DNA of 64,000 nt from an uncultured Candidatus Binatia bacterium (lineage in GTDB: Bacteria > Desulfobacterota > Binatia > UBA9968 > JAJDTQ01): the NCBI GenBank assembly GCA_965242525.1, contig OZ251459.1:128001-192000 (forward strand), given 5' to 3'. Position 1 is the first letter of the stretch. Every line of letters begins with the position of its first letter. The notes below the pieces were generated by a model. It was not told where the DNA came from. It was given only the letters and a program-made list of their open reading frames with translations, and searched no databases. This document shows, piece after piece, positions 9,805 through 16,013 of the stretch. Both the position numbers and the translations under genes were made by a program.

Positions 9805-9938
9805 AGGAACCTCCGAACAATCGGGACAGGAGGCATGAGCGCGTCCTTCGACTCCGCTTCGCTACGCTCGGGACGAACGGGGATAGGGGGTCAAGGTGGG
9901 GGAACCACCCTGGATGTCTCGATTGTTCAGAGGTTCCT
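9805..9938 (+). mobile_element. MITE-like element, copy A
   Basis: TIRs AGGAACCTCCGAACAATCGGGACA / TGTCTCGATTGTTCAGAGGTTCCT (22/24 complementary) enclose the core GCGCGTCCTTCGACTCCGCTTCGCTACGCTCGGGACGAACGGG. Confidence 0.8.
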
Positions 9939-14337: not shown

Positions 14338-15228
14338 CTACGCCGGGTCCCGCGGCTGCAGGGCCTCGTTGAGGGACCCGGTGCGGTAGCCTTGCAGGTC
14401 GATGCTGACGTAGGTGAACCCGGCCTCCCGGAAACGCCGGAGGACCTCTTCGCGGACCCCGGGCCGGAGCAGCCGGTCGAACTCGTCCGGGGCCGTCTCG
14501 ATGCGCGCCAGCTCGTTGTGGTAGCGCACCCGGCATATGCGGAAACCCAGCTCCCGCAGCACCCGCTCGCATCGGTGGACCTGGGTGAGCTTCTCCGGGG
14601 TGATGGCCGTGCCGTAGGGGAAGCGGCTGGAAAGGCAGGCCAGCGCGGGCTTGTCCCACACGCTCAGCCCCATGCGCCGGGCGGCCTCGCGGATGTCGGC
14701 CTTGGTGAAGCCCAACTCGTCCAGCGGCGAGCGCACCCCGCGCTCGCGCGCGGCCTGGCGTCCGGGTCGGTGGTCGCCCCGGTCGTCCGCGTTGAAGCCG
14801 TCCAGGATGTGGGCGATGCCCAGGGACGCGGCCTCGTCGATGGCCTTGCCGTAGAGCTCGGTCTTGCAGAAGTAGCAACGGTTGGCGGGGTTGGCCGCGT
14901 ACCGGGGGTCGTCGAGCTCGGAGGTGTCCACCAGCAGGTGCCGGGCGCCGATGTTTTCCGCCAGGCGCCGGGCGTCCGCTCCCTCTTCCGGCGCCAGGCT
15001 GGGGGACACCGCGGTGAGGGCCACGGCCCCGTCTCCGAGGGCGTTCACCGCCTCGGCCAGCAGGTAGCCGGAATCGACCCCGCCGGAGAAGCAGACCACG
15101 ACCTGCTCCAGCTCCCCGAGCAGCGCCCGGAGCCCGGCCACCTTCCCGGTCAACGACGCCGCGGCCCCGCGTCCACGGCTCGGCGCGGGCGCATTTTCGG
15201 TTCCGGTCATGCTTTCGGGTCGGTTCAT
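14338..15228 (-). CDS. larE: ATP-dependent sulfur insertase LarE
   Basis: PP-loop FSGGVDS, CYFCK, DDRGDHRPG, WDKPALACLSSRFPYG, RVRYH, GYRTGSLN. Start could be 15210, 15228 or 15252. Confidence 0.9.
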   Translation of the reverse strand: MNRPESMTGTENAPAPSRGRGAAASLTGKVAGLRALLGELEQVVVCFSGGVDSGYLLAEAVNALGDGAVALTAVSPSLAPEEGADARRLAENIGARHLLVDTSELDDPRYAANPANRCYFCKTELYGKAIDEAASLGIAHILDGFNADDRGDHRPGRQAARERGVRSPLDELGFTKADIREAARRMGLSVWDKPALACLSSRFPYGTAITPEKLTQVHRCERVLRELGFRICRVRYHNELARIETAPDEFDRLLRPGVREEVLRRFREAGFTYVSIDLQGYRTGSLNEALQPRDPA

Positions 15229-15262
15229 GCGGTTCCGGTCCGCTCCGGCCAACGCCCGCGCG

Positions 15263-15826
15263 TCAGGGCGTGGCCCTGACCCTGGGCCGGTCCAGCAGGG
15301 AGTCGCGCCAGCGCTTCAGGTTCGGCAGGTCGTCGCCGATGGACACCTTGTAATGGTCTTCCCGGGCAAAGAACGGGATGTAGGTGATGTCCGCCAGCGA
15401 ATAGTCCCCGACGATGAATTCCTGCCCGGCCATCCGTTGGTCCAGCGTCGCCAGGTGCTGCGCCAGCCGCTTCCGGTTGTTCTCGACGTCGTGGTCGTGC
15501 AGTATGTTTCCCGCCGCGGCCTGGAGCCGGGTGTTGCAGAAGTCGATCCAGATGCGCACTTGCGAGCGCAACACCAGGTCCCTGGGCATCAGCGGCGTCC
15601 GGGGGAACTTCTCGTCCAGGTACTCGTTGATGACCGCGGACTCGTAGATCACCGCGTCCCCGTCCACCAGCACCGGCACCTTGGCGTAGGGGTTGAGCCT
15701 CAGGAGCTCCTCGGGCTTGTCGCGGAGGTCGCACTCCACGAGCTCGTAGGGGATGTCTTTCTCTGCCAGGACAAGCCTTGTCCTGTGGGCGTACGGTCAG
15801 GGACCGTACGACAGCAATCGCAACAT
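15263..15826 (-). CDS. glutathione S-transferase (omega/SspA-like), predicted selenoprotein, 187 aa
   Basis: GGAGG RBS, ATG 15826, MLRLLSYGP-[TGA 15799-15797]-PYAHRTRLVLAEKDIPYE, continuous with LNPYAKVPVL and YESAVINEYLDE; SECIS-like hairpin 11 nt after the UGA. Confidence 0.85.
15767..15785 (-). promoter_or_regulatory. candidate bacterial SECIS element
   Basis: mRNA CAGGACAA-GGC-UUGUCCUG: perfect 8-bp stem with a G-led loop, starting after an 11-nt spacer from the UGA. Confidence 0.7.
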
Positions 15827-15863
15827 GTCGTCCTCCCGTGTCGGTGGTTTCCCAATGCCTTCC

Positions 15864-16013
15864 GGAAACTCCGGACCCTTCCGGCTCGAACCCCGTCTCC
15901 CTGTGGGAAAGCGCGTCCTTCGACTTCGCTTCGCTCAGGACGAACGGGGATGCTTCGCTACGCTCGGGACGAACGGGGATAACTGTCCAGGCTTCCCTTG
16001 TCCAGAGCTTCCC
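15864..16013 (+). mobile_element. MITE-like element, copy D (degenerate, doubled core)
   Basis: GGAAACTCCGGAC...TTGTCCAGAGCTTCCC ends; core at 15911-15978 with a tandem partial duplication. Confidence 0.6.

Follow-up and report, generated by a model that had tools for sequence, protein, structure and literature searches.

The window analysed in this work, a stretch of 64,000 nucleotides of DNA from an uncultured Candidatus Binatia bacterium (contig OZ251459.1), carries on its minus strand what is very probably a real selenoprotein gene of the glutathione S-transferase (GST) type. The UGA at codon 10 of this gene almost certainly encodes selenocysteine (Sec), aided by a small RNA hairpin located downstream of it. 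The coordinates of the gene and of the features around it are reported in Table 1.

As had been claimed from the sequence alone, the gene has a ribosome binding site and an ATG at position 15826, from which the frame reads MLRLLSYGP-TGA-PYAHRTRLVL. The start codon can be considered fixed, because stop codons stand in frame upstream of the ATG in many orthologues. It had also been claimed that open reading frame (ORF) callers truncate the gene, and this is indeed what we found: the mechanical ORF listing gives a single ORF of 158 amino acids that starts at a GTG (15739..15263, minus strand), and 118/120 of the best database relatives of the protein cover 94% of the query or less. All seven of these 118 short proteins that we inspected begin downstream of the TGA. 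Overall, the public database versions are fragments of 136–177 residues that lack the catalytic residue, and the starts picked by the callers in distant orthologues vary (146, 156, 159, 164, and 177 amino acids). Gene callers halt at the UGA and restart downstream, which leaves a widespread family systematically mis-annotated. Since annotation truncates the gene, selenoproteome counts are too low in the Binatia-labelled metagenome-assembled genomes (MAGs) that carry it.

Table 1. Positions, in the window, of the GST gene and of the features near it
Feature	Position	Strand	Basis
GST-type gene, very probably a selenoprotein with Sec at residue 10; 187 residues	15263..15826	minus	Sequence, translation, Pfam, AlphaFold2, Foldseek
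Shine-Dalgarno-like GGGAGGA, 4 nt 5' of the ATG	15837..15831	minus	Direct reading
Start ATG of the GST gene	15826..15824	minus	Direct reading
In-frame TGA, codon 10, almost certainly read as selenocysteine	15799..15797	minus	Conservation, Cys alignment, model
SECIS-type hairpin: 5' arm CAGGACAA, loop GGC, 3' arm UUGUCCUG	15785..15767	minus	Pairing and frozen synonymous sites
9-bp hairpin with the UGA in loop and 3' arm; not counted as a functional part	15810..15790	minus	Folding; not upheld by conservation
Terminal stop TGA of the GST gene	15265..15263	minus	Frame open up to there
LarE-type ATP-dependent sacrificial sulfur transferase (PP-loop)	14338..15252	minus	TIGR00268, 318.6 bits (cut-off 150)

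Conservation of the TGA and its decoding

We read the DNA of the best orthologue in each of 40 related genomes, which belong to one order, three families, and ten genera. The TGA was found in the same column in 40/40 of them (52–93% identity), 8–10 codons past an ATG or GTG start, always with the strand M-(K/L)-(L/R)-(L/Y/F)-S on its 5' side and PYAHRTR on its 3' side. Each best hit had exactly one TGA, with the exception of one copy ending at a contig edge. Among the paralogues, at 27–44% identity, only two weak hits had such a codon (a TGA in one and a TAA in the other).

Then, we extended the comparison to two larger collections. Among the species-representative genomes, the records of which are mostly titled Candidatus Binatia or carry the older label “Deltaproteobacteria,” the motif was present in 78/80 loci (the other two being incomplete): 77 had TGA and one, L098, had TGT. 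Among the metagenome contigs, searched using as query a form of the protein with cysteine (P0032, a cluster of 149 member sequences), it was present in 79/80 loci, of which 78 had TGA and one, L136, had TGT. Pooling the two collections, TGA occurs in 155 and TGT in 2 of the 157 motif-bearing loci. Cys, found at the Sec column in P0032, L098, and L136, is the only alternative residue there: neither Trp nor Gly was ever observed in the loci of the two collections. The Cys residues of the solved GST homologues 4hoj, 4qq7, and 6v91 also align with U10. Both the placement of the TGA at the catalytic position of Cys-bearing GSTs, as the sequence-only reading had it, and the pairing of Cys and Sec among homologues are thus borne out. 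The alignment of 57 sequences shows no variation at L4, C(U)10, and P11.

By eye, the L098 and L136 proteins are approximately 90% identical to Sec-form neighbours such as L097, which indicates a recent switch from Sec to Cys (or from Cys to Sec) between L097-like proteins and these two. The Sec state is held throughout a radiation of order rank, with one recent Cys switch; in this respect the family is a clean natural experiment on the reasons for keeping Sec. Several genomes hold two Sec-form paralogues, of the SYGP-U and SCHT/SSHG-U types; L077 and L100, for example, lie on one contig.

The same TGA is kept in assemblies obtained independently, namely in the 40 related genomes and in a contig from a different study (a run labelled as sponge metagenome). 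This contig covers positions 15100–15922 with 13 differences over 823 bases and has the TGA intact, and a sequencing error hiding a TGC or TGT codon is therefore excluded. It also shows that very close relatives of the organism occur in a sponge-metagenome-type sample.

The public calls invite a simpler reading, in which the annotated 158-residue gene starting at GTG 15739 is the real one, while the upstream ATG, the TGA, and the hairpin are remains of a longer ancestor, i.e., the locus is a 5'-truncated pseudogene. The ORF listing, which yields that ORF alone, and the length of nearly all the public calls (118/120 best matches at 94% coverage or less) agree with it. However, on the structural model the 158-residue product would be devoid of strand beta-1, helix alpha-1, and the catalytic position. 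Furthermore, protein-level conservation extends over the nine codons that precede the TGA, over the TGA, and over the stretch between it and the GTG in all 40 orthologues, down to 52% identity. In distant orthologues, the residue encoded by the GTG (Val30 in full-length numbering) is not kept as a start. Decay would neither keep the TGA in 155/157 motif-bearing loci nor freeze synonymous sites, as described below for the hairpin. We regard the truncated gene as extremely improbable, and a full-length gene read through its TGA as the preferred reading.

The genome to which the window belongs (4.23 Mb, 98.96% complete) has the whole pathway for Sec synthesis and insertion, the presence of which had been set as a check of the prediction. 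Profile searches identified selA (514.5 bits), selB (371.1 bits), and selD (382.7 bits), all above their curated cut-offs and adjoining one another on one strand (C1:3604834-3608891). ARAGORN identified a tRNA-SeC(tca) at C1:618102-618196, away from the sel genes and not within selB. The selD gene has one in-frame TGA of its own (C1:3605725-3605727, context KAAG-TGA-AAK), at the place where, in our reading, SelD usually has its Sec. An in-frame TGA was also found in an OsmC-like gene (LSLGF-TGA-LLTQ, C1 about 2197800-2198600, minus strand). Counting the GST gene, selD, and this OsmC-like candidate, the genome would hold at least three selenoprotein genes. None of the three findings that the sequence-only reading had named as refuting it (a genome devoid of Sec machinery, TGC or TGT in place of the TGA, homologues with neither Cys nor Sec at the column) was made.

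In the same genome, TGA is also the commonest terminator, as it ends 2446/3943 long open frames, and it is the terminal stop of 54/163 distinct Sec-form GST genes. Since TGA is an ordinary stop both in the genome and in the family, the genetic code is not reassigned, and the recoding of the internal TGA must therefore be local. These results bear on the possibility that the UGA is decoded as Trp, Gly, or Cys, either by a reassigned code or by near-cognate read-through, with the hairpin merely slowing the ribosome. One public gene call, P0010, does write W at the codon, and stop-codon read-through stimulated by a downstream structure exists in other systems. Against such decoding stand the use of TGA as a normal stop, the complete Sec pathway (with selD itself interrupted by a TGA), and the identity of the only alternative residue at the column: always Cys, which is chemically analogous to Sec, and never Trp or Gly. 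In addition, the GST hairpin and the hairpin of selD have the same apical CAA-GNC-UUG. A non-Sec residue at codon 10 thus seems highly improbable to us, and Sec remains the residue that we assign to it.

The two hairpins near the UGA

The stem with a GGC loop that the sequence-only reading had placed 11 nt past the UGA is present and perfect. After a spacer of 11 nt (15796..15786), its eight base pairs are formed by CAGGACAA (15785..15778) and TTGTCCTG (15774..15767), which enclose GGC (15777..15775). This hairpin, of the selenocysteine insertion sequence (SECIS) type, falls within the H-R-T-R-L-V-L codons of helix alpha-1. In a set of 86 distinct sequences of the Sec form, the 8-bp stem was paired in 96.5% of the cells, versus 25–51% when the 3' partner was slid. 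Little or no variation occurs in the six inner pairs, the two outer ones are loose, and a single compensatory change in the inner stem, from A-U to G-C, was found in L114.

The strongest contrast is at synonymous sites. Among the distinct genes, the stem codon of Arg15 is AGG in 149/163 (CGG in the remainder) and that of Arg17 is AGG in 163/163, whereas four other conserved Arg codons are AGG in only 18/153, 16/153, 4/151, and 4/161. Likewise, Val19, which lies in the stem, is encoded by GTC in 163/163 genes and Val50 in 8/163. The freezing of synonymous sites in the stem codons is also seen in the set of 40 genes.

The Cys forms act as a natural control. Instead of AGG-ACA-AGG-ATT, L098 and L136 have AGA-ACA-CGA-ATC, with three synonymous changes within six hairpin codons and three of the six core pairs left; the region of the Cys form folds into no hairpin (z = +0.47). 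The SECIS appears to have decayed after the Cys switch. Taken together, these comparisons indicate that the hairpin 11 nt downstream of the UGA behaves as a constrained RNA element, and it is conservation across relatives, rather than folding energy, that lifts the TGA and the hairpin above chance. RNA and protein would both constrain one dual-coding hairpin, which makes it an easy target for working out how SelB recognises its hairpins in an uncultured lineage.

The SECIS of selD in the same genome, CUGGCGCAA-GUC-UUGCGCCAG, lies 24 nt past its UGA and has in common with the GST hairpin the apical CAA-GNC-UUG mentioned above. This suggests that such a top could be what the SelB of the lineage recognises. 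A scan of the genome for stems topped by AAG-NN-TT downstream of a TGA gave seven matches, among which only selD and the GST gene have a credible coding context. The scan missed the OsmC-like gene and is thus no census of the selenoproteome.

The second hairpin encloses the UGA itself. According to the sequence-only reading, the UGA sits in a 9-bp hairpin of its own that could modulate read-through; the stem is there, the modulating role finds no support in conservation. The stem is perfect in the window, formed by CGTACGGTC (15810..15802) and GACCGTACG (15798..15790) around CCT, with a folding energy of −13.5 kcal/mol (z = −1.71; 11/200 shuffles fold as well). When this hairpin and the SECIS are folded together, no shuffle reaches the stability of the region (z = −3.30, 0/200). 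These values could speak for a regulatory role alongside Sec decoding, in which the enclosing hairpin would tune read-through, e.g., to selenium supply or temperature. However, only 54.1% of its cells are paired among the 86 sequences. Most sequences leave pairs 3/21, 6/18, 7/17, 8/16, and 9/15 open, 4/9 pairs depart by unpaired cells alone, and the covariation score is no higher than that of the slid controls. The perfect nine pairs are confined to the window, as even the closest relative, L013, is already mismatched. The 5-bp core UACGG/CCGUA, moreover, is explained by the mirror-image codons of Tyr-Gly and Pro-Tyr. Regulation by this hairpin therefore appears very unlikely to us, and the downstream hairpin is the one to which we assign a role in decoding.

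Several points weigh against the reading of the gene as a selenoprotein gene with a SECIS. The relatives compared are kin, and the TGA counts describe one clade, not independent events; L098 and L136 are near-identical and represent one evolutionary event. The hairpin is short, and by itself the SECIS stretch is not beyond its shuffles (z = −0.96; 28/200 fold as well), so that we rejected its thermodynamic significance as an argument. RNAalifold draws only a 4-bp core GGAC/GUCC with a covariation term of 0 and a 7-nt loop, and the 8-bp drawing is therefore not independently confirmed. Its support consists of invariance, with covariation in the inner stem resting on a single sequence. Because the stem overlaps the invariant residues HRTR-L/I-VL, part of the conservation is at the protein level, and only the synonymous sites speak for selection on the RNA. 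As regards the genome, neither TIGR01380 nor PF02955 matched a glutathione synthetase, an absence that a 98.96%-complete assembly does not prove. Finally, two metatranscriptome runs, X15 and X17, gave 3 and 11 short pieces, located at 15610–15697 and in the repeat upstream of the gene; most run on into unlike sequence, come from other organisms or repeats, and are neutral on transcription.

Protein fold, proposed chemistry, and genomic surroundings

With Cys put in for Sec, the best Pfam match was GST_N_2 (PF13409, 81.8 bits), followed by GST_N_3 and GST_N, and GST_C (37.6 bits) matched as well; GST_N_2 and GST_C were over their cut-offs. The AlphaFold2 model, computed from 57 sequences, reached a predicted local distance difference test (pLDDT) of 96.0 and a predicted template modelling score (pTM) of 0.91. 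In the model, residues 2–6 form a strand and residues 11–22 a helix, so that residue 10 is placed directly before the helix, at its N-terminus. Foldseek matched the model to GSTs at template modelling (TM) scores of 0.83–0.92, the top matches being glutathione-bound GST homologues. Pfam, the model, and Foldseek agree on a thioredoxin-like N-domain followed by a helical C-domain, the architecture that defines the GST superfamily. The residues K49-V50-P51 and E62-S63 are invariant among the 57 sequences; we take V50-P51 to be the cis-Pro loop and E62-S63 the Glu-Ser pair that hold glutathione in GSTs (the G-site). Among the NCBIfam models, no dedicated one matched over its cut-off. The best match was the SspA equivalog NF007016, at 103.1 bits versus a cut-off of 314, and we rejected the identification of the protein as SspA on this basis.

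On these data, we propose the following mechanism. Translation would begin at the ATG at 15826, and nine codons later the ribosome would reach the UGA. There, the hairpin (an invariant GGAC/GUCC core, extended by A-U pairs and capped by an apical GG(C/A)) would recruit SelB carrying GTP and Sec-tRNA(Sec), and Sec would be inserted at codon 10 in place of termination. At the terminal TGA (15265..15263), where no such hairpin is present, translation would stop normally. Sec10, at the N-terminus of helix alpha-1, occupies the position of the catalytic Cys of omega, lambda, dehydroascorbate reductase (DHAR), and Cys-bearing SspA-like GSTs. The attack by its selenolate would be on either a disulfide or some oxidised substrate. 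A selenenyl-sulfide would then form with a gamma-glutamyl-cysteine-containing thiol held at the conserved G-site, and a second thiol would regenerate the selenolate. With such chemistry, the protein may be a thiol-transferase or reductase of the Cys type rather than a conjugating GST.

The thiol cosubstrate is uncertain, as the genome yielded no glutathione synthetase. A glutamate-cysteine ligase of the plant/alphaproteobacterial type is present (TIGR01436, 479.3 bits versus a cut-off of 463.15; C1 about 2500938-2502746, L132:847-2655), as is a YbdK-type ligase. In the genome, a gshA of the E. coli type had no match. The PF03917 search of the genome gave no match either, but the control profile search also matched nowhere. 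The GST query had seven matches in the genome, the gene studied here included. One could imagine a GST lineage, nearly obligate for Sec, the enzyme of which would be a selenium-dependent reductase that uses gamma-Glu-Cys, or a thiol taken from the environment or a host, and not glutathione of the organism's own making; we consider this picture unlikely. The SECIS lies within the codons of the catalytic helix, and in this picture RNA and protein constrain the same 19 nt; if it were true, few unannotated selenoproteins would be more common than this GST in the Binatia of soil and sediment.

The LarE-type gene begins approximately 10 nt past the stop of the GST gene, on the same strand, and the two genes are probably co-transcribed in this genome. 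We also considered a functional link between them and rejected it: the adjacency is kept in 36/99 loci, all 36 of them at the genus level, and is thus confined to the genus and shared by descent. On its other side, the GST gene is divergent from nuoA-nuoB and from the rest of that cluster.

The spacer upstream of the GST gene contains two copies of a 28-nt unit (15924–15951 and 15953–15980, plus strand). With up to four mismatches, this unit has 653 copies in the 4.23-Mb genome (315 on the plus and 338 on the minus strand), 11 of which are in the window. The further copies in the window are near 9857, 10296, 14008, 14229, 44975, 47426, 47972, 51809, and 62587. Some copies form inverted pairs 220–550 nt apart, with a look reminiscent of repetitive extragenic palindromic (REP) elements or miniature inverted-repeat transposable elements (MITEs). 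Spurious ORFs arise from the repeats, and peptides such as FDFASLRSGRT recur in them. In two metagenome runs, the contig depth over 15875–15998 is raised by a factor of about a thousand.

Comparison with known systems

In the SECIS of E. coli fdhF, 11 nt separate the UGA from the start of the upper part, and the apical loop has G residues. The GST hairpin is similarly located in coding sequence just 3' of the UGA. Differently from that of fdhF, it is shorter, with a stem of 4–8 bp, a GG(C/A) tri-loop, and no evident bulged U.

As regards the protein, the best sequence matches among solved structures were 4hoj (Neisseria RegF), 4qq7, and 6v91 (Burkholderia “stringent starvation protein A”), with E values from 5e-31 to 5.5e-30. 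These are also the best structural matches (TM 0.83–0.89), and their C-P-F-S-x-R aligns to U-P-Y-A-H-R; 4qq7 and 4hoj were crystallised with glutathione. They differ from the GST protein in having Cys and not Sec, their identity to it over the structural alignment is 31–34%, and the GST protein is approximately 20 residues shorter. After these come the tau-class and the omega-class GSTs; for the eukaryotic Cys-GSTs the sequence E values are about 4e-21, and the structure of GSTO2 matches at TM 0.89. The omega GSTs (human GSTO1 and GSTO2) and the plant DHAR and lambda GSTs have a catalytic Cys that forms a mixed disulfide with glutathione, and they work as thiol-transferases or reductases, not in conjugation. 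These classes are eukaryotic and have N-terminal extensions. Since they are no closer to the GST protein than the tau-class GSTs, which use Ser, class membership is not established.

The closest known systems are the GST-like selenoproteins described from environmental sequence, the existence of which the sequence-only reading had stated correctly. Such proteins have been on record since 2005, and the gene described here opens no new kind of system; it belongs to a large branch that is cut short in public annotation. In our search of the literature for selenoproteins in Binatia, nothing related was found by title or abstract among the matches listed. Zhang, Fomenko & Gladyshev (2005) report four GST selenoprotein sequences from the Sargasso Sea, and two sequences of the supplement have U-P-W and U-P-Y at the Sec position (PMC1088965). 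The Global Ocean Sampling (GOS) survey of 2008 counts 12 Sec sequences versus 1,036 Cys homologues (PMC2398784), and reviews of 2022 and 2026 list the GST-like selenoprotein as uncharacterised (PMC9312934, PMC13188914). From what these sources give, the likeness lies in the bacterial GST fold, in a UGA-encoded Sec that starts helix alpha-1, in the U-P-aromatic motif, and in the assignment to COG0625/PF13409. Outside the G-site motifs, the two published marine Sec-GSTs are far from the GST protein, in a comparison made by eye with no identity computed. As far as the published tables go, the present branch also differs from that family in its origin, being formed by Candidatus Binatia-labelled MAGs and metagenome contigs, in carrying Sec nearly always rather than rarely, and in having a near-invariant SECIS.

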